Source: an uncultured virus (IMG/VR IMGVR_UViG_3300025501_000001) (taxonomy: Duplodnaviria; Heunggongvirae; Uroviricota; Caudoviricetes). Taken from it: DNA of 64,000 bases. The stretch lies in IMG/VR virus record IMGVR_UViG_3300025501_000001. One strand, written 5' to 3'. The position numbers and the translations under genes were made by a program. Below are positions 5,903-55,765 of this stretch, in pieces. Every line of letters begins with the position of its first letter. Position 1 is the stretch's first letter. The notes beneath the pieces were generated by a model. It did not search any database. It was not told the origin of the DNA and saw only the letters and a list, made by a program, of their open reading frames with translations.

Positions 5903-6292
5903 ATGGGAATGTTTGACCGCCTTACTTGCAGATATCCGTTGCCGGTGAAAGGTGCAAACGATCTGATCTATGCGACAAAGGACACCCCGGCCCAATATCT
6001 CGATAATTACGAGATCAGAGAAGACGGAAGCCTCTGGCATCAGGAATATGACATAGAAGACCATAGCGACCCGAAGGCCAAGGGAATTATGGCCCTGGCA
6101 GGGTGCATGACAAAGGTGGCCAGGGGGTGGGTGCCCGAGTTAATGACGGGAGAAATCGTGTTTTACCACCTTATCGGAGACAAGGGATGGATAGAGTTTT
6201 CCGCATATTTCGAGGCGGGCAAAATAGTCAGGCTGAATCTACTGGAACATGTCCCGGAAACAGAACCGGCAGGGAAGGCTGGTGGCTCTTAA
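5903..6292 (+). CDS. Hypothetical phage protein
   Basis: Strong SD upstream; MGMFDRLTC start. Confidence 0.65.
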   Translation: MGMFDRLTCRYPLPVKGANDLIYATKDTPAQYLDNYEIREDGSLWHQEYDIEDHSDPKAKGIMALAGCMTKVARGWVPELMTGEIVFYHLIGDKGWIEFSAYFEAGKIVRLNLLEHVPETEPAGKAGGS

Positions 6293-8080: not shown

Positions 8081-8637
8081 TTTTGATGTCCTCAAATATT
8101 TCCCGAGGGTGACAGGGGAGGGATCAGGATGGCGCTTCGGTTGGTCAGCCGCAAAAAAAAGTTCTTGTTTTCTGTTAGTTTTCTAACCTTTTGTTTTACC
8201 TTTTCTTATAGGTGTGTCATGGGGTTAGTTGTCTCTGTGCTCGGCCTCTATTGGAGGGAGGTAGTCACGTGGTGTCCAGAACGGACGGAAGGACGGAATG
8301 GGGGATCTGGCTGTACTGCACATAATGATAAATTGTGCGGTAGGGGTGGTATATGGGTACCTGTTATCAAGGCTTTCTGTTTCTCTCTTGTTTGCAATAG
8401 TGCGGTATGGTTTGGACCAGGATGTTTTTCTCGGTCCCCGAGGCGGCCTCCCCCCCATCGAAAACTTCCCGATCCCTGCCTTCCCCCTCCCCCATTACCA
8501 TCTTTATATTGTAGACAATGGGAAAACCTTTTTTCAGGTGGGATACGGGGCCTTACTCGTGTTCTCGGCGGTTCCAGCCTCGCCACGTCTTTAGCTTGCG
8601 GCCTTGCCTTTAAGGGGGGTCCGGGGGGGGTTCCCGC

Positions 8638-12605: not shown

Positions 12606-12796
12606 AACCGGCCACATGTCACGAGAGGCGGTCCTCGGCCGCCCCTGACTTCCAAAATCCGGCAGCCATATTTTTCACGCTGCACCGCAGCACCCTTTCC
12701 AAGATATCGTTGTCACAGTAATCAAAACCCCAGGTGCAGCGCTCGCAGCATCCTTTCCGTTGCACCAGAAAACCGCCAAAAGGGGTGCAACGGTTT

Positions 12797-12841
12797 TTTT
12801 GCAACCCCCTGCCGTACGGTTTCACATATTTCTGCTATAAC
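12797..12841 (+). promoter_or_regulatory. Putative late promoter, copy 1
   Basis: TTTTGCAA-N4-CTGCCGTAC-N15-TGCTATAAC. Confidence 0.7.
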
Positions 12842-27536: not shown

Positions 27537-28061
27537 ATGCTCGACATAAGCGTGACCGTCGAAGGCGACAAGGTAGTGATCGAGAACCTCGATGCCCACG
27601 CCGCGAGGATCCCCGCCGCCATAGACCGCGCCCTCACGCGCGTAGGCACCGGCGTCTTCGAAAACGCCCAGTATTGGCTCAGCGGGGCAGGCGGCGCATC
27701 GAAAGACCAGCGCACGGACTATGTCGGCTTCACTAAGAAATCCGGCGATAAGGTCATGTTCCGAAGTTACGAAGGCGCGGGCGCCTACCCTGTCCCTGCC
27801 CGGACAGGCTTCCTGAGGCAGCTCCTCGATTGGCTCCATCCGGGTGAAGCGAAATCCGGTCCTGCCGGCTCGTTCACCGCCGGGCCTTTCGAGACCGTCA
27901 TCTTCGATTCCGCCCTCTATGCCCGCGTCATCCGCGAGGGCACCGGCTCGTCCCGCAAGTACGGTCCCAGGGATTACCTCACGGACGGCCTCACGCGCTT
28001 CGACTCAGGCGGCGCGATAAAGGCGATTTTTGAGGAAGAGATCGAAAAGGAGACGAAATGA
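27537..28061 (+). CDS. HK97 gp10-like neck/tail completion protein
   Basis: PVPARTGFLRQ; YARVIREGT..PRDYL. Confidence 0.7.
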   Translation: MLDISVTVEGDKVVIENLDAHAARIPAAIDRALTRVGTGVFENAQYWLSGAGGASKDQRTDYVGFTKKSGDKVMFRSYEGAGAYPVPARTGFLRQLLDWLHPGEAKSGPAGSFTAGPFETVIFDSALYARVIREGTGSSRKYGPRDYLTDGLTRFDSGGAIKAIFEEEIEKETK

Positions 28062-34099: not shown

Positions 34100-34249
34100 A
34101 TGGACGAATTAACTCAGGCAGTACAGGGCTTGATCGCAAGGTTCAACGCGCTCAAGGCCGAAAACCAGACGTTGAAAGACCAGCTTGCGGCAGCCCCTAC
34201 GGCGGATGCGCTCAAGGCAATCACCGATCAGGCGAACGCCGCGCAGTAA
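34100..34249 (+). CDS. Small coiled-coil protein
   Basis: AGGAGG SD; MDELTQAVQGL... Confidence 0.6.
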   Translation: MDELTQAVQGLIARFNALKAENQTLKDQLAAAPTADALKAITDQANAAQ

Positions 34250-34250
34250 T

Positions 34251-34460
34251 GATGTTCAAGGTTCAGGGTTCAAGGTTCAAGGCTTACGGATGTTCAAGGT
34301 TCAAGGTTCAAAGTTGGGGAAAGAGAGGAATTTAACATTGAACCTTGAACCTCGAACCTTGAACGCCCCAAGGGGGCAACATTGAACATTGAACATAGAA
34401 CCTTGAACATCTCCATGCTCCAGAGCGCCGGAGGCGCGGGCTCCATGCTTCCTTGCTCGC
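34251..34460 (+). repeat. Heptamer element
   Basis: GTTC, GAAC, TGCT arms and GC hairpins. Confidence 0.9.
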
Positions 34461-36710: not shown

Positions 36711-36919
36711 GAGCAGGGAGCATAGAGGATGTTCAAGGTTCAACAAAGGGCTGTTCAAGGTTCAAGGTTCAGGGTTCAGGGCTTGGGAGGTTTTCAACAT
36801 TGAACTTTGAACTTTGAACATTGAACGCCCCCAAAGGGGGCAACATTGAACATTGAACATAGAACCTTGAACGCCCCCAAAGGGGGCAACATTGAACCTT
36901 GAACATTGAACGTTGAACA
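36711..36919 (+). repeat. Heptamer element with three right arms
   Basis: GAAC arms separated by GCCCCCAAAGGGGGC. Confidence 0.9.
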
Positions 36920-37743: not shown

Positions 37744-37930
37744 AGCATGGAGCAAGGGCAGGATATCCGCTATTTTACGTTGTGGTAATATACCCTGAAG
37801 TAATATACCCTGAAGTAATATATCTGAAAGGATATACTTGACATACCTTACTGTTTTACCGGCAACGTAGGTGCCTATCATCGGAATTTCCTCCAGCCGC
37901 ACTTTCTTTCTAAAAACCAAAAAATAATTC

Positions 37931-37960
37931 TTGACAATGCGTAACTGTTAGGCATACACT
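37931..37960 (+). promoter_or_regulatory. Sigma70-like promoter
   Basis: TTGACA-N18-TACACT. Confidence 0.6.
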
Positions 37961-38011
37961 ATATACAGATACAAAATACAGGCCGCCTTGGCCTCAGACA
38001 AGGAGAAAATC

Positions 38012-38683
38012 ATGGGTTCACTCGACAGACTTCCAAAACACGAGAGCAATGACGGATATCTGCACAGGGTCTGCATCCCCTGCGTCTACAACAGCGGTCG
38101 AAGAGCGACGGTACGGGTGACAATAGGCCATCCCGAGGTAATCGACATCGGCATCGATACCGACCGGCAGCGCCCGTACCAGTCCGTTGTGGACGGGTAC
38201 CTGCACATCGACACGGAATCAATTGTCCGCGACTTAGAGACCGATCCTCACGCCCCCATAGTCGGTTACCGACACAAAGAGGCCCTGGAAATGGTGGAGA
38301 TGATAAAAGGCGTCAACACGCATTACTTCGCCGGCGACCTCCAGGTATTGAGCGATGACAAGATGATAGCCGATAGCCGCTGCCGGCGAGAAAGGGGCAT
38401 GCGGGATGTTCTCAGAGACGTCGGGGACGCATGGAACGACTATTCCAGGACGTTGGATTTCGCATGGTGTCTTTCGGAATACAAGAAGCCCGCATGGTGG
38501 CGCGGCCTCACCGGACGGGCAGGATATGCCCTGTCCAAACTGAGGAAACAGCATGAGAGGGTAGAGCGGCTTGTCCCCCTCTCGGATGCACACCTTGGAG
38601 GTACCTGGCAGCGCTTTTACATGGATAATTCATGGCTCGATCAGGCCGCGGCTATCAAGGGCGGCAGGATATACCTCGCGTAG
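38012..38683 (+). CDS. Hypothetical protein
   Basis: AAGGAG SD and ATG. Confidence 0.65.
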   Translation: MGSLDRLPKHESNDGYLHRVCIPCVYNSGRRATVRVTIGHPEVIDIGIDTDRQRPYQSVVDGYLHIDTESIVRDLETDPHAPIVGYRHKEALEMVEMIKGVNTHYFAGDLQVLSDDKMIADSRCRRERGMRDVLRDVGDAWNDYSRTLDFAWCLSEYKKPAWWRGLTGRAGYALSKLRKQHERVERLVPLSDAHLGGTWQRFYMDNSWLDQAAAIKGGRIYLA

Positions 38684-38692
38684 GGGTGCGCC

Positions 38693-39838
38693 ATGGCTAA
38701 ATACACCGTCACCTGCCCCCGATGTGAAACAGATTACCGGGTAGATCTCATCGGCCCTTCCCGCGACCGTGAATGGAAGCTCGACAATTTCGATTGGACC
38801 TGCGACGAATGCCGCGAGAAAGCCCAGGCCGAGGAGAACGCTGCAGCAAGCGCGGCAAACGCCGCTTCCGGCCTTCCCGCGCTCACCGGTTCGGAAAAAA
38901 TGATCGCCTGGGCGGAGACCATCCGGAAGCAGAAAATCATCACCATCGATGATTACATCGAGCGATACACCGGACATCATCCCCTGGATGAGCGGCTGCA
39001 AGCCGCTATTGGCGGCCTGAAAAACCGCACATCCGCCCGCTGGTGGATTGACAACCGTGACCGCCACGTCGAACAGCTCCTCCGGGAAGAATATGCCGTC
39101 ACGGAAAAGCCCCTTCCGCCCGAGGATAAGAAGGCCGCAGAGGAAGCAAAGGCCGAGGCCCTGGCAGAGGCCACGGTCCGGCCGCCGAAACCTGTCACCG
39201 AGACCGTCGCGGAGATCCGCATCTCCGGCCCCGTCGTGGAGATCCTTTTTTCTGAGAAGCGCGAAGATTTTCGCCAGATCGTGCGTTTTCAGCTCGGCTA
39301 CACATGGGCAGAGACGCGCTGGCGCCGTCAGATCGAGCTCATCAACGGTACTCCCGAGGACCGTGCGGCCGAGGCCGGCAACCGCCTCCTGGCGGGAGGT
39401 TTTTCCATCCGCATCTTCGATGACAGCCTTCGTGTCCGTGCCGTCTACGGCACCTACGAGCCCGAGGCGAAGCGCTGGGTGATGGCGCTTACATCCGGCT
39501 CGCATGTCGGCTGGTTTATAATCAAGTGGCCCAGGGAGGAGGACTTCTACAAGGCCGCCAAGCGCATCCACGGCGCCCGCTATGCAAAACCCTCCATCAT
39601 CGTCCCGCCCGAGCAGTTCGCGGAAGTCCTTGATTTCGCGGAGATGTACAAATTCGGGATAAGCGCCGGTGCTCAAAGAGTTATCGCTGCGGCCCGCCAG
39701 GTCCGCGAGAAGGCGCTCACGGCCTCTCCCTCCGTCCCTTCCGCCCGCCGCCTACCCGCGCCCGGGGAGGTCCCGTCCGAGCTCGCCGTGCCCGCCGACG
39801 TCGGTATAGCCGATGAATTTATGGAGGAGGAGCCGTGA
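38693..39838 (+). CDS. Hypothetical protein with N-terminal Zn ribbon
   Basis: CPRC..CDEC, LPALTGSEKMIAWA. Confidence 0.7.
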   Translation: MAKYTVTCPRCETDYRVDLIGPSRDREWKLDNFDWTCDECREKAQAEENAAASAANAASGLPALTGSEKMIAWAETIRKQKIITIDDYIERYTGHHPLDERLQAAIGGLKNRTSARWWIDNRDRHVEQLLREEYAVTEKPLPPEDKKAAEEAKAEALAEATVRPPKPVTETVAEIRISGPVVEILFSEKREDFRQIVRFQLGYTWAETRWRRQIELINGTPEDRAAEAGNRLLAGGFSIRIFDDSLRVRAVYGTYEPEAKRWVMALTSGSHVGWFIIKWPREEDFYKAAKRIHGARYAKPSIIVPPEQFAEVLDFAEMYKFGISAGAQRVIAAARQVREKALTASPSVPSARRLPAPGEVPSELAVPADVGIADEFMEEEP

Positions 39839-41250
39839 CCGTTCTCACGCCCCTCCTGCCCCACCAGGCCGCCGCGGTCTCCCGCCTCTTGCCCGCCCGC
39901 ATAGGCGCTGCCTTCATGGAGATGGGCACCGGCAAGAGCCTCACGGCCATAGAGTTGATCTCCCGCCGCCAGGGCCGCATCTCGTGCGTCATCTGGTTTT
40001 GCCCGGTATCCCTCAAGGAGACCATCCGCCACGAGATCCTGAAGCACACGGACGCGCCCCCCGATAAAATCCACGTCTTTACCGACAAGACAAACGAGCG
40101 CACCGTCCCGCGCGTATTCTGGTACATCGTCGGGATAGAATCTATGAGCGCCTCGCGCCGCGTGATCCTGACGGTGAACGCGATCGTTGACGAGGCTTCC
40201 ATGGTCATAGTCGACGAATCGAGCTACATCAAGGGCCACCGGTCGGCCCGTACGGACTGGATAACGCGCATCGCCGAGCGCGCCCGCTACCGGCTCATCC
40301 TGACTGGTACGCCCCTCTCCCAGGGCGTGGTCGATCTGTTCGCGCAGATGCGCTTCCTCTCTCCAAAGATACTCGGCTACAGCTCCTTTTATTCTTTCGC
40401 GGCGAACCACCTGGAATATTCCGAGAAATTCCCCGGCCTGATCGTCCGCAGTCACAACACGGCCTATCTCGCCGCAAAGATCAAGCCCTATGTCTACCAG
40501 GTCACCAAGAAAGAATGCCTGGACCTGCCGGACAAGCTCTATTCCTCGCGCTATTTCTCGATGACCTGGGAGCAGCGCGACGCGTACGAGCGGGCGAAGG
40601 ACGAGATCCTTGCTTCCATCTCCGAGGACGACTGGAATTCGTATACGATCTTCCGCCTGTTCACCGCCCTGCAGCAGATCGTCTGCGGCTTCCTCAACCA
40701 TATCGACCCGAAGACCCGCGCCGTGACGACTGAGGAATTTAGCCATTGCCGCATCGATATGCTCATGGATCTGATAGGCCGCGTCCCGGAGGGCGAGAAG
40801 ATCATTATCTGGGCGAAGTACCGGCACGACATAGAGGAGATCGCCCGCGAGCTTACCGCCCGCTTCGGCCAAGGCTGCGCCGCGCTTTTCTACGGCGACA
40901 TCCCGGAGGCGAAGCGTCCCGCCCAAGTTGCCCTTTTCCGCGCCTCCGCCCGCTTCTTCCTCGCCACGCAGAGCTGCGGCGGCCATGGCCTCACGCTGAA
41001 CGAGGCGCACCAGGTGATCTTCTACAATAACGGCTTCAAATACTCGGAGCGCCTCCAGGCCGAGGACCGCTGTCACCGCATCGGCCAGGCCGCGCCGGTC
41101 ACCTACATCGATATCATCTGCTCGGACTCGATTGACACGCGCATCGACGACGCCCTTGCATCCAAGGGCAATATCGTGCAACAATTCAAGGCGGAGATCG
41201 ACCGGGTGAAGGGCAAGGGCAAGCTAAAGGACCTCATAAAAAGCCTATGA
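39835..41250 (+). CDS. SNF2-family helicase
   Basis: MEMGTGKS, VDESSYIK, LTGTP, QAEDRCHRIGQ. Confidence 0.9.
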   Translation: MTVLTPLLPHQAAAVSRLLPARIGAAFMEMGTGKSLTAIELISRRQGRISCVIWFCPVSLKETIRHEILKHTDAPPDKIHVFTDKTNERTVPRVFWYIVGIESMSASRRVILTVNAIVDEASMVIVDESSYIKGHRSARTDWITRIAERARYRLILTGTPLSQGVVDLFAQMRFLSPKILGYSSFYSFAANHLEYSEKFPGLIVRSHNTAYLAAKIKPYVYQVTKKECLDLPDKLYSSRYFSMTWEQRDAYERAKDEILASISEDDWNSYTIFRLFTALQQIVCGFLNHIDPKTRAVTTEEFSHCRIDMLMDLIGRVPEGEKIIIWAKYRHDIEEIARELTARFGQGCAALFYGDIPEAKRPAQVALFRASARFFLATQSCGGHGLTLNEAHQVIFYNNGFKYSERLQAEDRCHRIGQAAPVTYIDIICSDSIDTRIDDALASKGNIVQQFKAEIDRVKGKGKLKDLIKSL

Positions 41251-42455
41251 AACGGTACCTCACCAAAAACGTCTACGACGCGGCAATCGAGCGGCTGAAT
41301 CTCGTGTTCGATGAGTTCCCCCGCGTTTGCGTCGCCTTCTCCGGCGGCAAGGATTCGACCGTGCTGCTCCACCTCGCCCTCGAGGTCGCCCGCCGCCGCA
41401 ACATTGCACCCGTCTATGCGATGTTCCTCGACCTGGAGGGACAGTACAAAAGCACGATCGACCACATCAGGGAAATGTTCGCCCTGCCGGATCTCGTTTC
41501 TTACTGGATGTGCCTGCCTCTCAACCTGCGCAACGCCGTATCCGCGTACTTCCCCTATTGGTGCGCCTGGGAGCCCGGCCGCGAGGCGGATTGGGTGCGC
41601 GACATGCCCGACCACCCATCGGTCATCAGCGACCAGGGCTATTTCCCCTTTTACAAATACCGAATGGAATTTGAAGAGTTCGTGCCGGAATTCAACGAGT
41701 GGTTCGCAGGCGACGAGGGCGGCGCCACGGTGGTGGCCATCAGGGCGGATGAAAGCCTTAACAGGTTCAAGGCGGTCCGCAAATCCGCCGCCAAGAAGAA
41801 GTGCGCTTATAAGGACATCTACTGGTCTTCCATGCACAAGACAAAAAGCCGCGCGGTCACTTTCTATCCGATCTACGATTGGCGTTTTGAGGACATCTGG
41901 GCCTATATCGGCAAGCGCGGGCTGCCGTACAACAAGCTTTACGATTATATGTACCTCGCCGGCACGCCCCCGGCCGAGATGCGCATTTGCCAGCCCTACG
42001 GCGACGACCAGCGCAAAGGCCTCGATATGTTCCATAAAATCGAGCCCGATACGTGGTTCCGCATAGTCCAGCGCGTCGAGGGCGCAAACTGGGGCGCTCT
42101 TTACGCGCGGCAGAAATTCCTAGGTTATAAGGGGGGCCTCGGCCTGCCGCCGACATTCGCGACCTGGCAGCAATATGCAGAATTCCTGTTGCGCACCATG
42201 CCTCCCGACCTGGCGGCCGTGTTCCAGCGCCGCATCGATGTTTTCTTTGGCTGGTGGGCGGAGCACGGTTACCCCTTGAGCGCGGTCCCCGACGATGGCG
42301 ACCGCGAGCTGGAGGGAAAGAAGTTGCAGCCCTCATGGCGCCGGGTAGCAGTCTCGATCCTGAAGATGGATATGGGAAAAGGTCTCAGTTTCGGTTTTCA
42401 CCGGGGCGATACGAACCGCCTAATGGAGATAAAAGAGAGGTACGCGGACCTATGA
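41247..42455 (+). CDS. PAPS-reductase-like protein (IbrA/YbdN family)
   Basis: FSGGKDS PP-loop, IRADESLNR, YPIYDW, MRICQPYGDDQR. Confidence 0.85.
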   Translation: MKRYLTKNVYDAAIERLNLVFDEFPRVCVAFSGGKDSTVLLHLALEVARRRNIAPVYAMFLDLEGQYKSTIDHIREMFALPDLVSYWMCLPLNLRNAVSAYFPYWCAWEPGREADWVRDMPDHPSVISDQGYFPFYKYRMEFEEFVPEFNEWFAGDEGGATVVAIRADESLNRFKAVRKSAAKKKCAYKDIYWSSMHKTKSRAVTFYPIYDWRFEDIWAYIGKRGLPYNKLYDYMYLAGTPPAEMRICQPYGDDQRKGLDMFHKIEPDTWFRIVQRVEGANWGALYARQKFLGYKGGLGLPPTFATWQQYAEFLLRTMPPDLAAVFQRRIDVFFGWWAEHGYPLSAVPDDGDRELEGKKLQPSWRRVAVSILKMDMGKGLSFGFHRGDTNRLMEIKERYADL

Positions 42456-43096
42456 ACAATCTTTTCGAATCGGCCATCTCAGAGCACCTGGAGAAGATAT
42501 GCAGCCTGTTGGACCTGATGCCGCTGGAAGACCGCGTGGAGGCCCTGAACGCGATCAGGCAGAGGCTGCACGATGCCAGCCCTTTTGCCGATGAGCCCGT
42601 GGATTGCGTGCTCTGGGTCGAGGCGGACAGCGTCAGGGGCAACGACTACAACCCCAACCGCGTCGCGCCCCCGGAGATGCGCCTGCTGGAGCATTCAATG
42701 GTCGCGGATGGAATAACGCAACCTATTGTAGCCTACGCCGAGGCGGCCGCCGCCGGTTACACGGTGATCGACGGCTTCCACCGCACCCGCGTCTGCAAGG
42801 AATGCCGCAAGCTCCGGGAACGCCTTTACGACTACATCCCCGTGTCCACAATCAACGACCGGCGGCATGACATCAAGGACCGCATGGCGGCCACTATCCG
42901 CCACAACCGGGCGCGCGGCGTGCACGGCGTCATCCCCATGGTCGATATCGTCGCAATGCTCATTCGGCAAGGGTGGACCGACGGCGAGATAGCAAAAGAG
43001 CTTGGCATGGACGCCGACGAAGTGCTAAGATTCAAACAATCGAGTGGCCTTCCGGAATTGTTCAAAGATCACGAATATTCCCGGGCATGGGAGTGA
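42452..43096 (+). CDS. ParB-like protein (IbrB/YbdM family)
   Basis: NDYNPNRVAPPEM, DGFHR, ATIRHNRARG. Confidence 0.85.
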   Translation: MNNLFESAISEHLEKICSLLDLMPLEDRVEALNAIRQRLHDASPFADEPVDCVLWVEADSVRGNDYNPNRVAPPEMRLLEHSMVADGITQPIVAYAEAAAAGYTVIDGFHRTRVCKECRKLRERLYDYIPVSTINDRRHDIKDRMAATIRHNRARGVHGVIPMVDIVAMLIRQGWTDGEIAKELGMDADEVLRFKQSSGLPELFKDHEYSRAWE

Positions 43097-43714: not shown

Positions 43715-44387
43715 GCACGCCGATCGCCGCATAACTGGACGTGCGAGCACTGCAATAATTTCTGTTTTCTAACGTCCCGGCGTATGCTATAATTGAAAAT
43801 CATGGCAAAAGAGCTACCGATTCAATGGATTTGCCCTTACTGCAAGAGGAGGATAGGAATCTATATTCTTTTTGCCACATTTGACATGATCTTTTCCCCC
43901 GCGAAATATTTCAAGTGTCCCTGTCAAAATCAAACCTCGGTTGACCGTTTAATGAATTACTGCACAAATGGAGGTGTGCAAGTTCTCTCTGATAAGTTAC
44001 CATGAAAGGCGCACCATCCGGCCCCCGCCTTCACTTTATCTGTCATTCCCGCTCAAGCGCGGCAATCCGCTATCTTACCTTGTGGTAATATATCTGAAGT
44101 AATATATCTGAAAGTACATATTCGACAGCCCAAAGGGGCCTGTATGAATGCTAACCAGATTAGGAAACTGGCCGAATTAATGGACCCCACGATATGGAAA
44201 GACCGCAAATCGAGCATAAAGACCTGCATCAAGTTACTTAATACGATTATAACGACACATGCGACGCCAAGAAAAGGGACTGTTCGGCTACCAAGGCCCA
44301 TGACCGCAAAAGAAGTCGGCGCAAAGATGTGGGCCCATCGCGAAGACCATCTCACTTCCTCCGGTTTGGTCAACGAGTCCGCACAGG

Positions 44388-45217: not shown

Positions 45218-45279
45218 ATTCGATTTTATATCGTTGCACGGACAGCGATGAAAAGCAATCTCTGTTTTGAGGCGCCCTT

Positions 45280-45324
45280 TTTTGCAATCCCCTGCCGTAC
45301 GATTTCCTCTTTTTCTGCTATTTC
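45280..45324 (+). promoter_or_regulatory. Putative late promoter, copy 2
   Basis: TTTTGCAA-N4-CTGCCGTAC-N15-TGCTATTTC. Confidence 0.7.
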
Positions 45325-45371
45325 TGAAGCATGGCCGATAGTTCCGTAAAAATCATCAAAGGAGAATAACG

Positions 45372-45863
45372 ATGCTTGACCTTAACATTACTATTGATGG
45401 TGATAAGATAGTCATCAACAATCTGGAGCGTATCGCCGACGAACTACCCGAGGCCGTGAACAGGGGCCTCACTACAATTGGTGCCGGCATATTCGACCGG
45501 GCGCGAGCCTGGCTAAGCGGCACGGGGGCCAAAGGCACTACGAAAAACCGAAAGTGGACGCCCCAACAGATCGATCCAGGGGGCTACCCGGTCCCGGTAC
45601 GTACGGGATGGCTCCGCCAATCACTCAACTGGCTGCATCCGGGCGAATCAATGTCGGGCGACGCGGGTTCTTTCACAGCCGGCCCTTTCGAGACGGTGAT
45701 CTTCGACTCCGCGTTATATGCCCGCGTCATCCGCGAGGGCACCGGCTCATCGGCAAAGTACGGCGCGCGGGATTACCTGACGGACGGGTTTACGGCATTC
45801 AGCTCGGAGGTAGGCGTCACCACGCCGATCGAGCAGGAAATAGCGAAGTTGATAAACAAGTGA
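45372..45863 (+). CDS. Second gp10-like neck protein (paralogue of 27537..28061)
   Basis: Identical GSFTAGPFETVIFDSALYARVIREGTGSS block. Confidence 0.8.
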   Translation: MLDLNITIDGDKIVINNLERIADELPEAVNRGLTTIGAGIFDRARAWLSGTGAKGTTKNRKWTPQQIDPGGYPVPVRTGWLRQSLNWLHPGESMSGDAGSFTAGPFETVIFDSALYARVIREGTGSSAKYGARDYLTDGFTAFSSEVGVTTPIEQEIAKLINK

Positions 45864-46032
45864 GGTGCACGACCCATGCCTGGGCGTGGGTAGCCCAGTC
45901 GAAATTTCCTCCGGCCCCAATTCATTAATTGCACGATTCAATAATTCCGTCATTCCAAAAGGGACTTATTTTGTAATTCCCTCTTGAATGCGCTTCTGGT
46001 AGAATGTGAGAAAAGCAATAGAGGAGGACAAT

Positions 46033-46979: not shown

Positions 46980-47008
46980 TTGACATAGCCTCTAAGCTGC
47001 CGTAGCCT
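46980..47008 (+). promoter_or_regulatory. Sigma70-like promoter
   Basis: TTGACA-N17-TAGCCT. Confidence 0.55.
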
Positions 47009-47080
47009 ATTATTGCTACGATCTATCGGGGCTGCCCTTGGCCTCACGAAAGGGATTTTCTATTTTAAGGGCTGAAGTGT

Positions 47081-47162
47081 CCCGAGTGCGCTCATAAAAC
47101 CGGTTTTTGACCGGGCCGCGAGGCATGGGCCGGCTTCCGATAGAGCCGTAGCAGCACTCGGG
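47081..47162 (+). ncRNA. C4/CI-like antisense RNA candidate 1
   Basis: CCCGAGTGC/GCACTCGGG closing stem; loop CCGATAG complementary to CTATCGG at 47023 and 47197. Confidence 0.65.
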
Positions 47163-47212
47163 CTTTTTGCGTGCCGGCTAAAACCGAGGCTAAAAACTAT
47201 CGGAGGTGCAGT

Positions 47213-47602
47213 ATGAGGCAACTGCAAGGAGTGGTAAAGGGGCGGTGCGAGCATATTCACCATTGCCCGCTCTGTGACAGGCTCAAGCGTATCGTCAGGG
47301 CCAACGCGAACAATCTTCGGCTCAATCTCTACGGCCTGGCCCGGCCGAATGGCTGGATAGTCTGGCCGAAGGAGATTCTATACGATGTCCTCGTCCCCCT
47401 CTTCAAGATCGAGGAGGCCGCCTCGGCCTTCCATGTCCGCAGGACACAAAGCATGACCGAAGACGAGGCCGATGCCTACGCCGCCGCACATCTCTTAGCG
47501 GAGCCCTGGAGGCCCGAGGGCGCCCCCGAGGCAGACCGGTTCCGGCCGGAGCTCACGCTGGTCATGGGCGGTCTGGCACCGAGGGGGCCTGGCGGCCGGT
47601 GA
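47213..47602 (+). CDS. Hypothetical protein
   Basis: GGAGGT SD and ATG. Confidence 0.6.
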   Translation: MRQLQGVVKGRCEHIHHCPLCDRLKRIVRANANNLRLNLYGLARPNGWIVWPKEILYDVLVPLFKIEEAASAFHVRRTQSMTEDEADAYAAAHLLAEPWRPEGAPEADRFRPELTLVMGGLAPRGPGGR

Positions 47603-47675
47603 CCGTACCGCATATTTGCGAAAAGTGCGGTATAAAATAATTAGCCCTTACCGCACTTTTCCGACAAATTACCCC

Positions 47676-47704
47676 TTGACATGGGGTTTTATGGAGGTTA
47701 GACT
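47676..47704 (+). promoter_or_regulatory. Sigma70-like promoter
   Basis: TTGACA-N17-TAGACT. Confidence 0.6.
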
Positions 47705-47746
47705 CTCTGCGGAATGAACCAGAACTGTACATTTACAAATACATGT

Positions 47747-47815
47747 TTTCCCCGAGTGCGCCCATGTGGTGAGGCCTGGGCCGGCTTGTCTGGGCCGATT
47801 CCACACTCGGGGAAA
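47747..47815 (+). ncRNA. C4/CI-like antisense RNA candidate 2
   Basis: TTTCCCCGAGTG/CACTCGGGGAAA stem; shares GAGGC.TGGGCCGGCTT with copy 1. Confidence 0.65.
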
Positions 47816-47852
47816 TCTTTTATTATCACAATTCAGCAAGTGACAGGCAAAG

Positions 47853-48584
47853 ATGCCCATAGCGGATGACGGCTACAAAAAGGCCATAGATCAAACAAGA
47901 ACCTGCACAAAATGCGGAAAGGAAAAGCCATTCACGGCTGAATATTGGTACATGAGGCGAGGAGGGCGGAAATGCAAAGAATGCTGCCGGGCTGGATATG
48001 ATGAATGGTACGCGAATAATAAAGAAAAGGTTAAGGAATGGAGAGCAAAGAATGCTGCAAAACTTAAGAAACACAGCCATACTTATTACCTTAAAAACCG
48101 CAGGAAACTCATTAAGCAGTCCATAGAAAGGCAAAAGGAATACAGAAAAAGCAATCCGGAATGGCGCGACAAAAAGCGCCGCATCCAAAAAGCCTGGTGC
48201 GCCGCGAACCCGGAAAGGCGCCGCGAGCACTGCCGCGCAACGCACGAGCGGCATCCAGAGACTACCCGCAGAGGCGACGCCAAATCGCGGGGCGAGCTCC
48301 GGGACTGTTACCTTAAGTTCGTTCTAAGGCGGCGGGGCATAGATCCAACTCCACAGACAATAGAGATTGAACGCGAGAAGCTGCAATTGAGACGGCTTAT
48401 AAAACAGATCAAGGAGGCTATGCATGGGTCTGATTCAGCAGGAAATAAAGGAACTGCGGCAGTTGTTGGCGGATGTGAAGGCCAAGCGCATAACCGGAGA
48501 GGAACTGGATGCTCAGATAAAGGTATACAGCCAGATCGAGAAAAGGACCAACCAGTTCCTACAGTCCGTCGCCTTGGCCGCTAA
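47853..48584 (+). CDS. Basic Cys-rich protein
   Basis: CTKCGKEK..CKEC; Lys/Arg-rich helix. Confidence 0.6.
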   Translation: MPIADDGYKKAIDQTRTCTKCGKEKPFTAEYWYMRRGGRKCKECCRAGYDEWYANNKEKVKEWRAKNAAKLKKHSHTYYLKNRRKLIKQSIERQKEYRKSNPEWRDKKRRIQKAWCAANPERRREHCRATHERHPETTRRGDAKSRGELRDCYLKFVLRRRGIDPTPQTIEIEREKLQLRRLIKQIKEAMHGSDSAGNKGTAAVVGGCEGQAHNRRGTGCSDKGIQPDREKDQPVPTVRRLGR

Positions 48585-48831
48585 GTATGCCGAGAAGGGG
48601 AATAACGCCTATAAGCGCCTCGTCGCGGCCAACCTGATAGGCGACGGGGAGGCGATAGAGATAACACCGACGCATGAGACGGAAAAGATACTGTGCCGTG
48701 CTCAGGATAACGTGCTGATCGAAAGGGGGGAGTGCCTTGATTATTCGGGCCAGGAAGAGCACCGCTTCGTCTGCAAGGGATGCGAAGCCGGGGAAGTTAC
48801 GAAGAAACTTTGCCTGCCCGACGGTGTATGA
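48424..48831 (+). CDS. Hypothetical protein
   Basis: AAGGAGG SD. Confidence 0.65.
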   Translation: MGLIQQEIKELRQLLADVKAKRITGEELDAQIKVYSQIEKRTNQFLQSVALAAKYAEKGNNAYKRLVAANLIGDGEAIEITPTHETEKILCRAQDNVLIERGECLDYSGQEEHRFVCKGCEAGEVTKKLCLPDGV

Positions 48832-48864
48832 CGCGCGGTCGGGGCAAACCAAGAGGAGAGAAGC

Positions 48865-49218
48865 ATGGAGGAGCAGAAGGAGATAAGGTACACCAGCAGA
48901 TCAAACGCGGTAGAGACGTTTTTCTTTAAGGGCGCGATGTACACGGTTCTCGATAATGCCGGCGCAGTGTTAATGCCTGACGCGGAGAACGATCATGGAC
49001 ACATAATCTACTCGATAAATATGATCATGCCCGCGCCAGGGGAATCCGGCGGGGCCGGTGAACCCATTGAAAGAGAAGTTCTAGGTCTCAAGGAACTTCA
49101 CATGGACGGGCGCATGGGCAGGGTCTCCGGGTTCTACGAGACAGAGAAAGAGGCATGGGACGCAGCAGCGGCCTTCTTGGAAGACGTCGCTAAAGCCATA
49201 AGAGCTCGGAGCCTATAG
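48865..49218 (+). CDS. Hypothetical protein
   Basis: GAGGAG SD. Confidence 0.6.
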   Translation: MEEQKEIRYTSRSNAVETFFFKGAMYTVLDNAGAVLMPDAENDHGHIIYSINMIMPAPGESGGAGEPIEREVLGLKELHMDGRMGRVSGFYETEKEAWDAAAAFLEDVAKAIRARSL

Positions 49219-49220
49219 CA

Positions 49221-49496
49221 ATGAACAAAAATAACATGCGAGACGGCGGCGGCAATCCCTTCAATGATGCAAGTGCGCAGGAAGTCGACGAGGCTTTTTT
49301 AAAACTTTGGCTTGAGGACCCTGGCTTTCGCGAAAGGTCGCTTGATCGCCTCGCGGACATGATAGCCGCCAAGCCGGGAGACGTGCTCGTCGGGATCACG
49401 GTGACGCAGGCGATGATAGACGAGGCCGTCAGGATGCAGAAGTTTCTTGTCTTCTTCGCACAGGCCATGGGAAACGGACCCATGCAATCCCAATGA
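49221..49496 (+). CDS. Hypothetical protein
   Basis: Adjacent coupled ORF. Confidence 0.55.
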   Translation: MNKNNMRDGGGNPFNDASAQEVDEAFLKLWLEDPGFRERSLDRLADMIAAKPGDVLVGITVTQAMIDEAVRMQKFLVFFAQAMGNGPMQSQ

Positions 49497-50509
49497 ACCA
49501 TCTAACACTAAATCAGGAAGGAGATATCACCATGGAAAAGAACACGGATTTTACGATCAGCAACATGACGGGCCTGGAAATAGCCCTAATGGAAGAAAAC
49601 AAAAGTGCGGTAGAAACCTATTTGGAGAGGATCGACCGGGAGACCTCGAACGAGATGTTTAGGGTCATAGGGCAGCACTTCGGGTTCCCGACAGTGGAAA
49701 TCCAGGGGGTCAGAAGGGCCTCCGCAGCCCATCTTGCCAAACTTTTGGGGTACAAAAACCCCCAAGGCCTCCTACATTTGCTCGATCGGTATGGTATTTC
49801 GGGGGTAATGGTGGGGGGATTTATACATTCTGTACGTATCCAAATAAAACAAGCACTTAGCCTCGACCCCGACGATAACCGCTCGATATTATTGGAGTAC
49901 AAAGCGCTCCTCATAGCGGCCATGCAGAGCACCAACGAAGAGGCAAAGCCCATTAAACTCTACCTCCTGCGGTGTGAGTACGTCGCGCGCGTCGGCGCCG
50001 TGGCCTTGCGGCCTGGAACGCAACCTGCCACTTCGATAGACAACCCCATGGACAGGATGACCATGCAAAAGCTTGCAAAGCAGGCAAACGGGGGCGACCA
50101 ATGGGCCATCTACGAGCTGAAGACGCATTATGGCTGGCCGGTGGAGCTCATAGCGGGCCTCACCGAGCCCGACGTCTCAGAGGTGGCCGCCACAATCTCC
50201 AGGCTGCTCAGAATAGCCTACGAAGAAAAGCTCACCGATTTCGGCCTCGAAGTTGGCGAGACATCTACCGGTTATTACGTCTATGGTAGAACCTACTGCC
50301 TCCACGAAACCTTTCTCAATATAATAGAGAAGCACCATCTGCAACGATTTTTCTCCCACCCTCAGAACCTTGGATGGATCATGGCGCGCGAGGCCGAGGC
50401 CCTTGCGGCCCTCGGGTGGGAACGTAAAAAGCACACAACATATCAAGGAGACCGCAGCAGGTACAGGTACGAGTATGCCCGGCCCAAGCCGGAACTGGCT
50501 AAAAAATAA
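49493..50509 (+). CDS. Antirepressor-like DNA-binding protein (start possibly 49532)
   Basis: HLAKLLGYKNP...LLIAAMQSTNEEAK Bro-like region. Confidence 0.6.
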   Translation: MNHLTLNQEGDITMEKNTDFTISNMTGLEIALMEENKSAVETYLERIDRETSNEMFRVIGQHFGFPTVEIQGVRRASAAHLAKLLGYKNPQGLLHLLDRYGISGVMVGGFIHSVRIQIKQALSLDPDDNRSILLEYKALLIAAMQSTNEEAKPIKLYLLRCEYVARVGAVALRPGTQPATSIDNPMDRMTMQKLAKQANGGDQWAIYELKTHYGWPVELIAGLTEPDVSEVAATISRLLRIAYEEKLTDFGLEVGETSTGYYVYGRTYCLHETFLNIIEKHHLQRFFSHPQNLGWIMAREAEALAALGWERKKHTTYQGDRSRYRYEYARPKPELAKK

Positions 50510-50521
50510 AGGGGGCCTCAA

Positions 50522-50737
50522 ATGCGATTAACCGTTTCCGATCTTTCAAGGGTGAACGTGACGTATAATGGGGACCTGGGTCATATCAGGCTCGAATGCC
50601 AGACCTGCAGTCATGTATGGTCCCCCAATCAGCCCCCAGGGGGCAGACGCTGGTACAACAACTGGTATCGCTGCCCGAATGGGTGTAATGCGGAACTCAT
50701 AGTAAATCTGAGAAAAGGAGCAACGCCGTCCCAATAG
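50522..50737 (+). CDS. Small Zn-ribbon protein
   Basis: CQTC..CPNGC. Confidence 0.55.
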   Translation: MRLTVSDLSRVNVTYNGDLGHIRLECQTCSHVWSPNQPPGGRRWYNNWYRCPNGCNAELIVNLRKGATPSQ

Positions 50738-50788: not shown

Positions 50789-50824
50789 GGGCCGTGGTCC
50801 TTCGGGGCTGCGGCCCTTCTTTTT
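50789..50824 (+). terminator. Intrinsic terminator
   Basis: GGGCCGTGGTCC-TTCG-GGGCTGCGGCCC-TTCTTTTT. Confidence 0.7.
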
Positions 50825-50865
50825 GCAATCGCCTGCCGTACAATTTCATCCTTTTCTGTTATTTC
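50821..50865 (+). promoter_or_regulatory. Putative late promoter, copy 3
   Basis: TTTTGCAA-N4-CTGCCGTAC-N15-TGTTATTTC. Confidence 0.7.
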
Positions 50866-50871
50866 ATATTC

Positions 50872-53496
50872 ATGGCAGATCAGAGCGTAAAGATCGTCAT
50901 TTCGGCCGACGGCTCCGGTGCGGTCGCGGTTAGTAAGGAAGTCGGCCAGGCTTATCGAACGTTAGGCACGCAGTCAATCGCAGCTCTGAACGAGCAAAAG
51001 GCCGCCGCTACAGCCGCGTATGAGACAATAAAAAACTCAGGCATCGCCTCGGCCCAGGAGATCCGGCAGGCCCAGGGCGCTATGCACAAGCAAATCGCCC
51101 AATTAAACGAGCAACTGGTAGGCAATTACGGCAGCACAACCTCACAGATCAAGGAACATTGGCTTAGCCTGAGCGCCGGGGCCGTGACCGCAATTATGGC
51201 TATTAACAAGGTCGTAGGCTACATGGAAATCGGCGCGAAGGCCATGCAGATCGACCAGGCTTTTCGCACGGTAGCCGATGCGTCGAAGTTCAATGCAGAT
51301 GCGTTTCTGGAGAACATGCACAGGCTGACCGCCGGGACCATGACCGATAGCGAGATTGCCCAGAAGTCCCTCAAGGGCATAACGCAGGGCCTGTCCGAGA
51401 CCGACATGGCGAAGATCGGGGAAATGGCCCGCCTCAGCGCCCGGACCCAGGGCATCGATGTCCAGGAAGCCTTTGACCGCCTCACGGATTCGATCGCAAA
51501 TAAGGTGCCCCGGGCGCTAAAGCAGTTCGGCCTGATCACGACCGAGCAAATGCGCCTCGTCACCCAGGGCATGGCCGCCGGCGTCGACGACATCAACCTG
51601 ATGCAAATTGCATACATAAATTTGCAGGAAAAAGAGGCATTGACCGGAAAGGCCACGGACAATGCGACGGAGGCCATCCAGCGCCATCGTGCCGAGATAC
51701 GTCAGCTCACGCAAGACATAGGGGTGGGCCTCGTCAATGCCCTCGGCGATGCCATTGAGGGGTTCAGCAAATTCAAGGACGTATATATGCCGGCCGTGCT
51801 GGGCGGGTTCTTGCCGCAGCCAGGGGCACAATTGCCCGTTGACCTTAGAGGGTACGCCAAGCAGCCAAAGGCAGAGCAGGGGCCGCCCGAATTGGCCTAC
51901 GAGGCCGGCACCAACCCCGATCAGGCAAAAGCATGGGCCGATCAGCAAAGGGCCGATTGGCTGAAAAAAACACAGACAGAAATCAATGCCCCCAAAATAA
52001 AAGAGTTGAGGCTCGAATTCGAGGCCTGGAAAGTCTCTATCGAGAATTTGAACCCGGCACTTGACGAGACCGCGCGGAAGATGAACGAGGTTAACAAAGA
52101 GGCCGCCAAATACATCGCGGGCAAGCCGGGCGCCGCGCCGGGGACGACGATAGGGATCCCGAAAGGCGAAGTCGAGCAGCAGCAGGCCAAGGCCGCAGGA
52201 TACCTGCAGCAGCAGGCGCTGCTCAAAAACGCCCAGATGAATGCCAAGATGCAGGAGGAAGGCGTCAAGCAGCAGGAGCAGTATTCGAAGGAATACGAGA
52301 CGCTCTTCAACCAGGTTGCCGGCTCCCGCGTCAATGCCGAGCAGGTAGCCCTCGCCAAGATCGACACCGAAGAGAGAAAACGTGTCGCCCAGGCCAGCGA
52401 GCTTGCGCTCAAGAGCACGTGGGACTATGTGAACGCGAAAAAGATAGATACCATCACCGCCGAAGAATCCGAAAAGCTCCTCACGCAGATCCACGAGGAC
52501 GCCGAGCGGCAGCGGCTGGCCTTGACCACAAAGAACCAAGCCGCGATGGCGACGGCCGAAAGCGAACAGCGTCTTGCGGCGATCGACTATCAGCAAAAAA
52601 TGGGCCTCATATCGCCGGCACAGGGGATCTCAGCGAAGCTCGGCGAAAACCAGTCTTTGCTCTCAAGCCTTGAGGGATGGAAAGCCGGTCTCGAGGCCGC
52701 CGGGCAAACCGGGGACCAGGTGTACCAATCGATACTGCAGAAAATAAAAGCCGTAGAGAAGGCGACAACCGACCTTACGGTCGCCAACCAGGTTTACGTC
52801 GGCTCGTTTGGGGAAGGCATGAAGATCGAGATCCTCAAGTACTCGGCCTCCGTCAACTCGGCATTCAACGCGGGCGCGTCGCTCGCGAATACGGCCAGCA
52901 AGGCCATGGAAAACAGCTTTACCTCCTTTTTCGACGCGACGAGCAAGAAGTTTTTGGATTTCAACTCCCTGGCCCTCAGTGTATTCGGCGACATCGAAAG
53001 ACAGGCAATTAAACTCGCGATCTCGCAGCCCCTCACAAACAGTATCATGGGCAGCCTTGGCGGCCTTTTCGGCGGAGGCACGCAGGTCGTTCCAGGCATC
53101 GCCGGAGGTCTGCCGGCCAATGCGCCCTACGTCCCCGGTTCTGCCCATGGGAACCTTTTCTCCGGCGGCCATCTCGTTCCCTTCGGCGCGGGAGGCATCG
53201 TCGACAGCCCGGTCATCTTCCCCATGGCCTCCGGCGCCGGCATTATGGGTGAAGGCGGCCGTCCCGAGGCCGTCATGCCGCTCACCCGCACGTCCTCGGG
53301 CGATCTGGGCGTGCGCGCCGCCGGCACGGGGGCGCCCAGCATGATGACGAACGTCACGATCAACACGCCGCCCGGCACAAAAGTGGCCAAGCAGACGGAA
53401 ACCAAGCGGTTCGACGGCCGCCAGTGGGTCAAGAACCTCTCCATCGACCTCGCGGCTACGGACCTGGAATACCAATCCGCCCACGGGCTGAGGTAG
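50872..53496 (+). CDS. Tail tape measure protein
   Basis: MADQSVKIVISAD start; helical; FGAGGIVDSP..MGE..PEAVMPL C-terminal motif. Confidence 0.9.
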   Translation: MADQSVKIVISADGSGAVAVSKEVGQAYRTLGTQSIAALNEQKAAATAAYETIKNSGIASAQEIRQAQGAMHKQIAQLNEQLVGNYGSTTSQIKEHWLSLSAGAVTAIMAINKVVGYMEIGAKAMQIDQAFRTVADASKFNADAFLENMHRLTAGTMTDSEIAQKSLKGITQGLSETDMAKIGEMARLSARTQGIDVQEAFDRLTDSIANKVPRALKQFGLITTEQMRLVTQGMAAGVDDINLMQIAYINLQEKEALTGKATDNATEAIQRHRAEIRQLTQDIGVGLVNALGDAIEGFSKFKDVYMPAVLGGFLPQPGAQLPVDLRGYAKQPKAEQGPPELAYEAGTNPDQAKAWADQQRADWLKKTQTEINAPKIKELRLEFEAWKVSIENLNPALDETARKMNEVNKEAAKYIAGKPGAAPGTTIGIPKGEVEQQQAKAAGYLQQQALLKNAQMNAKMQEEGVKQQEQYSKEYETLFNQVAGSRVNAEQVALAKIDTEERKRVAQASELALKSTWDYVNAKKIDTITAEESEKLLTQIHEDAERQRLALTTKNQAAMATAESEQRLAAIDYQQKMGLISPAQGISAKLGENQSLLSSLEGWKAGLEAAGQTGDQVYQSILQKIKAVEKATTDLTVANQVYVGSFGEGMKIEILKYSASVNSAFNAGASLANTASKAMENSFTSFFDATSKKFLDFNSLALSVFGDIERQAIKLAISQPLTNSIMGSLGGLFGGGTQVVPGIAGGLPANAPYVPGSAHGNLFSGGHLVPFGAGGIVDSPVIFPMASGAGIMGEGGRPEAVMPLTRTSSGDLGVRAAGTGAPSMMTNVTINTPPGTKVAKQTETKRFDGRQWVKNLSIDLAATDLEYQSAHGLR

Positions 53497-54393: not shown

Positions 54394-55005
54394 ATGAAAA
54401 CGCTCCCTCCCGAGATCGTCCAGGAGCTGCAGAAACTCCACCAGCCCTCGGCCCTCATAGAGCTCCTCGACATCGCGATCCCCGACGGCTCCCACCTGCG
54501 CCTCGCCAACTACACGGACGATGTCGTCTTCGGCGGCAACACCTACTACAAGTTCAACTTCGACTTTCCCGGCCTCACGGAGGACTCGAAGGGCTCCGTT
54601 GTCGGCATAGAGCTGAAGGTCTCGAACGTGGACGGCGTTATCCAGGGCTACATGCAGCAGTACCAGGGCGGCGTGGGCTTTGAGGTCGTCCTGTACCTCG
54701 TCAACTCAGCTTATCTTGAGTCCGATTATGCCGAGCTGACCTGGGAGTTCTCCATCACCGCCTCCGGCTTCGACGAGAAGTGGGCGACCTTTCAGATCGG
54801 TGCCCCCAACTTGCTGCGCCGCCAGTGCCCCCCGGACGAGTACACGGCGGACCACTGCCCTTTCATCTACGCCGACGTACGGTGCGGCCACGCTCAGGAC
54901 AATGTCCCCTGTGACTACACCCTCGCGGGCTGCCGCGGCAAAGGCAACAGCCCCCGCTACGGCGGCGAGATGGGCTTGTCCCAAATTAACTTCAGGCTCG
55001 TATGA
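54394..55005 (+). CDS. Lambda gpL-like minor tail protein
   Basis: LKVSNV; CPFIY..CG..CDYTLAGC. Confidence 0.8.
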   Translation: MKTLPPEIVQELQKLHQPSALIELLDIAIPDGSHLRLANYTDDVVFGGNTYYKFNFDFPGLTEDSKGSVVGIELKVSNVDGVIQGYMQQYQGGVGFEVVLYLVNSAYLESDYAELTWEFSITASGFDEKWATFQIGAPNLLRRQCPPDEYTADHCPFIYADVRCGHAQDNVPCDYTLAGCRGKGNSPRYGGEMGLSQINFRLV

Positions 55006-55164
55006 TGTTCAGGGTTCAGGGAGGTTCAAGGTTCAGGGTTCAAGGTTCAGGGTTCAAGGTTGAGGAAAGAGAGGAATTTAACATTGAACATTGAACATAG
55101 AACCTTGAACGCCCCCAAAGGGGGCCACGTTGAACATTGAACCTCGAACCTTGAACATTGAACA
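55005..55164 (+). repeat. Heptamer element between the coupled ATG (55002) and the NlpC body
   Basis: GTTC/GAAC arms. Confidence 0.9.
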
Positions 55165-55765
55165 GCTCTTTTATACGGATCTGCTGGACAAGCGATACGA
55201 GAAGGGCGCCCGCGGGCCCGATGCCTATGACTGCTACGGCCTGGTGATGGAGGTCTTCAAAAGGGCGGGCGTCGCCTTGCCCGACTACGGCTGCGCCGAA
55301 AGCCCCGAAGGCGTAGCGGAGCTCATCACGCGCTTCAGCACCGACTGGCGCGAAATATCTGGAGATGTTCAAGGTTCAAAGTTCAAGGTTCCAGGTTCGC
55401 AAAGAGAAGGGTTCCAAACATCGAACATTGAACATAGAACCTTGAACGGCCCCGAAGGGGCAACCTTGAACGTTGAACATCGAACCTTGAACAGCTCTAT
55501 CGAACAGCCCTTTCCCCCCATCCCCTGCGCCGTGATCTTCTGGATACGCCCGGTCAGGATAACCGTTGAGCGGGGACATTCCTCCGAAGACCATCGGCGA
55601 GAGGTGTGTCCCCCTTCCTTTGTTTACATAGCCTCGCACATCGGCGCCGTCGTCGCGCCCGACCGGTTCATCCATATCCTGGCGGGCACGAGAGTGTCGG
55701 CGGAGCGCCTGTCGGACCGCACCTGGGCAAAGCGTCTCATGGGGTATTATACGTGGCCGAAGTAA
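55130..55765 (+). CDS. NlpC/P60 (gpK-like) tail protein with two in-frame insertions; start uncertain
   Basis: GARGPDAYDCYGLV, HIG, FIH. Confidence 0.85.
   Translation: MNIEPRTLNIEQLFYTDLLDKRYEKGARGPDAYDCYGLVMEVFKRAGVALPDYGCAESPEGVAELITRFSTDWREISGDVQGSKFKVPGSQREGFQTSNIEHRTLNGPEGATLNVEHRTLNSSIEQPFPPIPCAVIFWIRPVRITVERGHSSEDHRREVCPPSFVYIASHIGAVVAPDRFIHILAGTRVSAERLSDRTWAKRLMGYYTWPK
55364..55493 (+). repeat. Heptamer element in-frame in NlpC/P60
   Basis: Encodes DVQGSKFKV...NVEHRTLN between WREI and EQP. Confidence 0.9.
55572..55613 (+). repeat. CCTCCGAAG..GCGAGAGG hairpin, copy 3 (in NlpC/P60)
   Basis: ggggacattcctccgaagaccatcggcgagaggtgtgtcccc. Confidence 0.75.

Follow-up and report, generated by a model that had tools for sequence, protein, structure and literature searches.

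Two tandem, divergent C4-type antisense RNA cassettes in a probable immI-like control block of a temperate tailed phage

Introduction

Two tandem cassettes, each encoding a putative antisense RNA of a divergent C4 type, lie side by side in a temperate tailed phage, and the region that they form is very probably an immI-like control block. The window, by which we mean the whole stretch of 64,000 nucleotides that was analysed, encodes a primase, an integrase (8638), a Mu-like portal (16048), a tape measure (50794) and a tail J protein (55606). The twin cassettes lie inside an accessory block at 37.9-50.8 kb, ahead of the tape-measure gene. Near-identical copies of this phage (99.97-100%) are found on 4 viral and 3 metagenome contigs, and the elements studied here are invariant among all of them. 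The longest copy has 80,810 bases and begins about 21.5 kb ahead of the window. The anatomy of the cassettes, their paralogy and the covariation of their recognition segments are laid out in the following sections. From these we infer that the RNAs are expressed, processed and repressive.

Table 1. Features of the two cassettes and of the distant 38012 leader and operon (window coordinates)
Feature	Position	Strand	Basis or remark
Promoter of the 38012 operon, TTGACA-N18-TACACT	37931..37960	+	Predicted; consensus scan 10/12
RNA-less paralog of the cassette leader; hairpin A 37980-37994, hairpin B 37986-38003	37980..38005	+	Alignment and folds
Candidate trans target of RNA2 b', over SD	37994..38002	+	9 pairs, one G-U
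Operon: 223-aa ORF, 381-aa ORF, SNF2 helicase, DUF3440/PAPS-reductase-like, ParB-like	38012..43096	+	Domain searches
Promoter 1, TTGACA-N17-TAGCCT	46980..47008	+	Predicted; by eye, -10 below consensus-scan threshold
RNA1 upstream targets; a1 47013-47018, b1 47022-47031	47013..47031	+	At predicted 5' end
Leader switch; hairpin A 47028-47045 (3' strand GGCCTC) versus hairpin B 47035-47054, then U-rich tract	47028..47066	+	Predicted attenuator
RNA1, three-way junction; b' 47134-47144, a' 47149-47154	47081..47162	+	Fold and model R2
RNA1 downstream target over SD of ORF 47213; a2 47189-47192, b2 47197-47206	47189..47206	+	Pairing
129-aa ORF, icd position	47213..47602	+	Without family match; no homologue found
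Promoter 2, TTGACA-N17-TAGACT	47676..47704	+	Predicted; consensus scan 10/12
RNA2 a1 47711-47715, partial b1 47719-47723	47711..47723	+	Short leader without hairpin A/B switch
RNA2, junction as in RNA1; b' 47785-47793, a' 47798-47803	47748..47814	+	Fold and model
Degenerate RNA2 local b2 candidate, before ATG 47853	47844..47850	+	7 pairs, one G-U
Gene run 47853, 48424, 48865, 49221, 49532, 50522	47853..50737	+	Downstream of RNA2

Architecture of the Two Cassettes

A sequence-only reading of the window had proposed two related C4- or CI-like antisense RNAs, here RNA1 and RNA2. All of its motifs are present where it placed them, namely CCGATAG (47137), CTATCGG (47023 and 47197), TGAGGCC (47770), TTGTCTG (47786), GGCCTCA (37990), CAGACAA (37995) and GGCCTCAC (47040). 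Their membership in one family is supported. The two RNAs share CCCGAGTGCGC at 47081 and 47751, the sole two copies, have the same junction, and form folds that exceed those of shuffled sequences (z -2.7 for RNA1 and z -3.6 for RNA2). A TTGACA-N17 promoter had been placed ahead of each RNA. Promoter 2 passes a consensus scan that accepts 13 sites in the window against 7.9 +/- 2.9 in shuffles, whereas promoter 1 falls below its threshold and is recognized by eye only.

Judged from its sequence and pairing, RNA1 is very likely a canonical local C4-type switch. Its P2 stem carries a 19-nt extra hairpin and its P3 stem forms with a probability of 0.94. The proposal that it pairs with one target upstream and with another that overlaps the SD of the next gene is upheld by covariation across eight cassettes (see below). 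The a1b1 pairing score of 14.5 is exceeded in the window only by the antisense strand of RNA1 itself, and the a2b2 region is the best match of RNA1 among 298 candidate start regions, with a computed net binding of b' at b2 of -6.0 kcal/mol. The + strand of the 64 kb contains no copies of CTATCGG other than those two. When sites throughout the window were ranked simply by duplex, the ranking did not discriminate between them. A protein-led search with ORF 47213, which follows RNA1, returned identical copies only. A further match of RNA1 is seen upstream of the integrase at 8233-8257 (+), where 4 + 11 pairs cover a GGAGG that precedes a short GTG frame and score 14.0. This site equals the cognate sites, and one chance-looking minus-strand site reaches 13.5.

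The leader of cassette 1 carries hairpin A behind b1, followed by a purine run and a U tract. The same arrangement, with GGCCTC or a near variant as the 3' strand, recurs in five of the six homologues described below; the leader of L218 has no hairpin A. When b1 was blocked in silico in those five homologues, the loop of hairpin A paired with the purine run and a terminator-like helix resulted. For the leader of cassette 1, hairpin B did not form when b1 was blocked in a 75-nt stretch; it does form in a shorter fragment, with a z of -0.18 that is not above shuffles. GGCCTC is thus a conserved leader-hairpin strand, and GGCCTCAC at 47040 is therefore part of that hairpin. GAGGC in P2 is common to 6 of the 8 RNAs and is ancestral.

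These shared letters bear on the pairing of TGAGGCC with GGCCTCA, which had been offered as evidence for the targeting of RNA2. As such it largely fails, being mostly inherited family sequence at a site that ranks 296th among the 400 sites kept for the segment. Pairing through the P2 loop (TGAGGCC) was rejected as independent evidence given the conserved GGCCTC, the ancestral GAGGC and the 16 copies of GGCCTCA. The 7-mer matches alone are not rare, since the + strand holds GGCCTCA 16 times, GGCCTCAC 9 times and CAGACAA 3 times. The paired sites of RNA1, on the other hand, are far above chance because ordered a and b pairs occur at the +1 region and again at the SD, and because these pairs covary among the relatives.

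RNA2 has an a1b1 of its own at 47711-47723, which the sequence-only reading had missed. It scores 10, the top of its row among the eight leaders, with a b1 of only 5 pairs. The distal P2 stem of RNA2 is broken, its family fold of -36.6 kcal/mol competes with an alternative at -36.8 kcal/mol, and its P3 probability is 0.32 versus 0.94-1.00 in the other seven RNAs. A proper a2b2 over the SD of the next gene is absent for RNA2 locally. The degenerate candidate at 47844 has neither GGAG nor an in-register a2, the net binding of RNA2 b' there is +3.1 kcal/mol, and the local a2b2 score of 9.5 is the lowest of the eight cognate scores (the others are 11.5-15.5). Recognition by two segments had been proposed for RNA2. 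The part of this that holds is b', in the P3 loop; the second element is a', in the linker between P3 and P1, and not the P2 loop.

Among the genes downstream of RNA2, the product of 49532-50509 shows in its model a Bro-N/antirepressor-like fold (Foldseek best E 4.8e-4, many Bro-N rows, low TM). This ORF has no Pfam or PHROG match, and a PDB fold search gave no match at E<=0.001. Its homologue in L217 (43%) lies two genes behind a cassette. Another GGCCTCA, one of the 16 copies, is located at 50514-50520 between the SD and the ATG of ORF 50522.

A Family of Homologous Cassettes

Through the homologue of ORF 49532 a homologous cassette came to light in another phage, L217. Cassettes were also collected with a pattern built from the P1 core plus the P3 3' arm, which leaves a', b' and the targets outside it. 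Fourteen stretches matched: four copies of the window phage, L219 (the same as L217), L218 and its duplicate L227, L220, L225, L228 and L231 (one contig with two cassettes), and three chance loci. The latter (L222, L226 and L230) were rejected, as L222 and L230 reach about 18 bits with model R2 and have no promoter or targets, and L226 is identical to L222 there. This leaves six homologous cassettes in five other phage records, or eight cassettes with the two of the window. Model R2, which was built without RNA1, recovers RNA1 at 40.5 bits; it finds no third RNA copy within the window, and 142 loci taken from failed pattern scans gave no match at E<=0.01. Patterns that require GGCCGG returned only window-phage copies and chance matches from viral sequences. 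From genomes such a pattern gave 47 stretches, none homologous by eye, of which 42 were scanned with R2 without a match, and from metagenomes it gave 24 stretches, three of them the window phage and the others chance. A pattern run against 401 genomes from a single phylum gave two matches, and by eye neither resembles the family.

Across the eight cassettes, a' (linker) and b' (loop) change together with a1b1 and with the SD-overlapping a2b2. Covariation of recognition segments with targets in relatives had been suggested as a check, and it was found: the cognate RNA has the top a+b score, alone or tied, in 7 of 8 leader rows and in 7 of 8 rows of downstream regions. The leader of the second L228 cassette (L228b) and the downstream region of L220 score higher with a non-cognate RNA. 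The structure placed on seven RNAs has 86.2% of its cells paired, against 30-51% in slid controls, and five of its pairs are changed on both sides. Its covariation, computed from these few sequences with the P1 core and GCCG fixed by the search pattern, is 0.231 and was reached by 0 of 500 shuffles.

A TTGACA stands 101-146 nt ahead of P1 in seven family cassettes and 75 nt ahead in that of RNA2. The downstream genes are mostly Rha/antirepressor-like, with a Rha family match in L220 and a weak match to the anti-repressor Ant in L228. The two cassettes of L228 (8216-8393 and 9890-10061) are in tandem, 1.67 kb apart, and have a common a' core with differing b' and local targets. Each of them precedes its own small ORF and a DNA-binding or antirepressor-like gene. 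On account of its anatomy and covariation, the family probably works like C4. The related phage L218 additionally contains a type II hammerhead ribozyme above the Rfam threshold at 5393-5469.

Relation to Known Antisense RNA Systems

By score the RNAs are not members of Rfam C4; they are a divergent variant of the C4 kind. An Infernal search against C4-type Rfam models, as the sequence-only reading had suggested, came back empty. The window has no match to the C4 clan (CL00128; RF01695, RF03163) at gathering and none at E<=10, while the P1 control locus (AF234172.1 48255-48691) matches RF01695 and RF03163 with 68.8 and 51 bits. The clan has no match in L217, L218, L225 and L228 and none at E<=10 in L232, L235, L236 and L217.

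In the annotated P1 record, the single strand that joins P3 to the 3' arm of P1 serves as a', and the P3 loop as b' (PMC5320573). The targets are ordered a then b, upstream and downstream, with b2 over the SD (PMC5320573). The family resembles C4 of P1 and P7 in its three-way junction, where P2 abuts P3, and in the placing of b' within the P3 loop and of a' within the linker before the P1 3' strand; in an upstream a1b1 and a downstream a2b2 whose b2 covers the SD; in a two-state hairpin behind b1, the P1 leader having a similar hairpin pair; and in a small ORF that is followed by an antirepressor-like gene. It differs in its shorter P1 (9-12 bp) with a CCCGAGTG core, in a GNRA-capped P2 and in an a-b spacer of about 3-5 nt, versus 7 and 22 nt in P1. 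It ends in a U-rich tract, without a CCA-like 3' end, and has no GGW start, both of which are features of P1 C4, where RNase P releases the stable small RNA. Two cassettes in tandem and an RNA-less leader copy before another operon are further differences.

Among the features that define a C4-type switch, three stems (P1, P2 and P3) with exposed a' and b' are found in both RNAs, the fold of RNA2 competing with its alternative. Both have an a1b1 upstream on their own transcript. A b2 over the next SD is present for RNA1 and not for RNA2, and the specificity segments covary with their targets between phages. Against the immI-like C4 reading it can be held that the antirepressor call for ORF 49532 rests on weak fold matches, and that the RNAs match no Rfam C4-clan model and have no CCA-like 3' end.

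The RNAs are also similar to P4 CI (seqA/seqB/seqC) and to IsrK of Gifsy-1, in which, according to PMC4825925, an RNA from the leader of the controlled operon pairs up- and downstream and is linked to premature termination. This likeness is by description, and no match to an Rfam isrK or CI-type model was obtained in the window or in the relatives scanned. For the Group 1 C4-like sRNAs of Acinetobacter baumannii, several copies with varied recognition loops are reported in one genome, and the authors propose, without having tested it there, that these sRNAs act on other transcripts (PMC5320573). The Acinetobacter RNAs match Rfam C4 and are chromosomal, whereas here a concrete candidate site lies in a paralogous leader of the same phage.

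Control of antirepressors by C4 is established (PMC12197685, PMC4825925, PMC2864571). The present family extends C4-type immunity RNAs to members that Rfam misses, although the c4 motifs of PMC2864571 may bear on the extent to which C4 variants were known before. Its eight natural specificity variants read out the pairing code, and model R2 can be used to annotate further members. In the literature searched, which lies outside the primary P1 and P4 papers, there was no paper with a C4-type RNA that acts on an unlinked operon via a duplicated leader.

Proposed Mechanism

RNA1 would be cut from the leader transcript or end within it. It could then bind its own operon twice, through a' in the linker before the P1 3' strand and through b' in the P3 loop and adjoining stem bases. 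Binding at a2b2 would cover the SD of ORF 47213 and block translation. At a1b1, binding would remove the 5' arm of hairpin A, so that hairpin B and the U tract would end transcription. The genes leading to the Bro-N-like antirepressor would in this way be off in the lysogen, and the immunity would be sequence-specific. Cassette 2 appears to be a second copy in which a' and b' have changed. It has kept the promoter and a partial a1b1, and the leader switch has presumably been lost, as has a proper local a2b2. At the head of the 38012 operon, in turn, there seems to be a displaced, RNA-less copy of the cassette leader.

The 38012 Operon and the Role of RNA2

The leader of the 38012 operon aligns locally with that of cassette 1 at a score of 28, which 0 of 5110 other 51-nt windows reach; the next best among the other 23 TTGACA sites scores 16. 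It is the only promoter with hairpin A and without an RNA in six records scanned. As computed, its hairpin B would bury the SD AAGGAG (38000-38005), the purine run here being the SD itself. CAGACAA at 37995 overlaps GGCCTCA at 37990 by 2 nt and runs into AAGGAG ahead of the ATG at 38012. The genes of the operon are probably co-transcribed, judging by their spacing. The sequence-only reading had given them the label 'IbrAB'; the domain matches themselves are to SNF2 helicase, DUF3440/PAPS reductase and a ParB-like protein. The 38012 protein has six homologues (38-63%), and a protein-led search for records with ORF 38012 gave identical copies only. Two sets of repeats each have one member nearby. 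Repeats of 14-15 nt that share a GTAATATA core are arrayed at 37765-37843 and again at 44065-44127, each time before a promoter-like site, and may form an operator or iteron array. A 24-nt repeat (83%) is found at 37881-37904 and 45899-45922, shortly upstream of two promoter-like sites.

What RNA2 does can be read in three ways. The first, to which we give a little under an even chance, is that RNA2 is a decaying or purely local copy, which would control ORF 47853 weakly or act on its own leader alone. The leader at 38012 would then be a reused promoter-leader fragment and its match to RNA2, with about the same likelihood, a coincidence aided by shared family letters. Consistent with this, RNA2 alone of the eight has a P3 probability below 0.9 and a broken distal P2 stem, b1 has only its five pairs and the leader has no switch. 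CTT in b' and AAG and GGCCTC in the leader are family letters, and L228b is a precedent for a second copy with a poor b1. Decay sits less well with a promoter 2 that is strong by consensus and with a P1 that is intact and longer than that of RNA1. Moreover, a1 continues to fit the altered a', and this suggests that selection acted after the copies had diverged.

The second reading revisits the earlier claim of a duplicated RNA with changed loops that controls a distant module. The paralogy and the changed a' and b' stand; the distant control of 38012 is uncertain. RNA2 would have been retargeted and would repress the helicase/PAPS-reductase/ParB operon in trans via b' at 37994-38002, a proposal that we hold only tentatively. 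In the same tentative spirit, the pairing of b' would extend over the 3' strand of hairpin A and into the SD, of which it would cover the first half, and the loosened P2 loop or P3 3' arm may add pairs with the adjacent GGCC(TCA). The site is the best of RNA2 among the 298 candidate start regions and is in the family register, with the end of the b site inside the SD and 9 nt ahead of the ATG. It lies inside the only RNA-less family leader found in the six records. Net b' binding of -2.1 kcal/mol is within the range of the seven cognate sites (-7.0 to +1.2), while the local site has +3.1, and the local a2b2 of RNA2 is the weakest of the eight. At the b1 position of the 38012 leader, 5 nt in a row pair with b' of RNA2; among the eight RNAs this is the longest such run.

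Chance weighs on this match from several sides. For that single leader the chance is 6/4096, a figure that applies to a leader first picked out by the match itself. An equal match at any start arises by chance in 122/1500 (145 long-frame starts) to 237/1500 (298 starts), that is, 8-16%, and 3 of 38 unrelated RNA-record pairs reach an equal score at some start. Four other non-self sites of the window score equally, none of them at a start, and with a+b scoring 11 further non-self sites reach or exceed its 11.5. An a-type partner is missing: just 3 pairs are possible, where six of the seven other cognate downstream sites have 4-5. CAAG can also be accounted for as the partner of the leader's own hairpin B, the P3 probability of RNA2 is low, and no diverged relative was found with both RNA2 and the 38012 operon. 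Control of 38012 in trans is accordingly rated as plausible but less likely than not, because the b' match is in the family register and in a paralogous leader, yet comes without an a-type partner or a relative with both elements. An apparent double match at start 6187 was rejected since it is inside a real ORF (5904-6292).

The third reading, an unlikely one, places the true a2b2 of RNA2, or a third RNA fitting the a1b1 position of the 38012 leader, outside the window, in the rest of the phage or in another host element. It agrees with the sequence that the 80,810-base contig adds ahead of the window and with an 8-mer at the b1 position of the 38012 leader that has no complement on the window's + strand, and blocking that position in silico buries the SD (the unpaired probability of 38000-38003 falls to about 0); against it, all seven other family RNAs have local targets, and a scan of the window with model R2 gives no third RNA.

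Were control in trans to be real, which is less than an even prospect, a C4-type switch would have been taken apart here, with an RNA2 that lacks a local target and a leader switch, and an RNA-less leader 9.7 kb off under its control. The phage would then couple a putative DNA-modifying module to an immunity RNA. A C4-type RNA on an unlinked operon with a defined target would also be a testable case of a cis-acting phage switch that becomes a trans regulator.

Other Repeats in the Window

Several repeats are found apart from the cassettes. Related intergenic stretches at 45268-45358, 50809-50899 and 12795-12838 each have a terminator-like tract and then a promoter-like sequence, and may represent a late promoter motif; they stand before the neck gene and the tape-measure gene. 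The segments 45624-45787 and 27825-27988, in two neck/tail-completion-like genes, are 79% identical in DNA and form an internal duplication. A family of short-period tandem repeats occupies many intergenic sites (e.g., 28562-28772, 34249-34449, 36727-36872 and 55002-55171), some of which are read through as coding.
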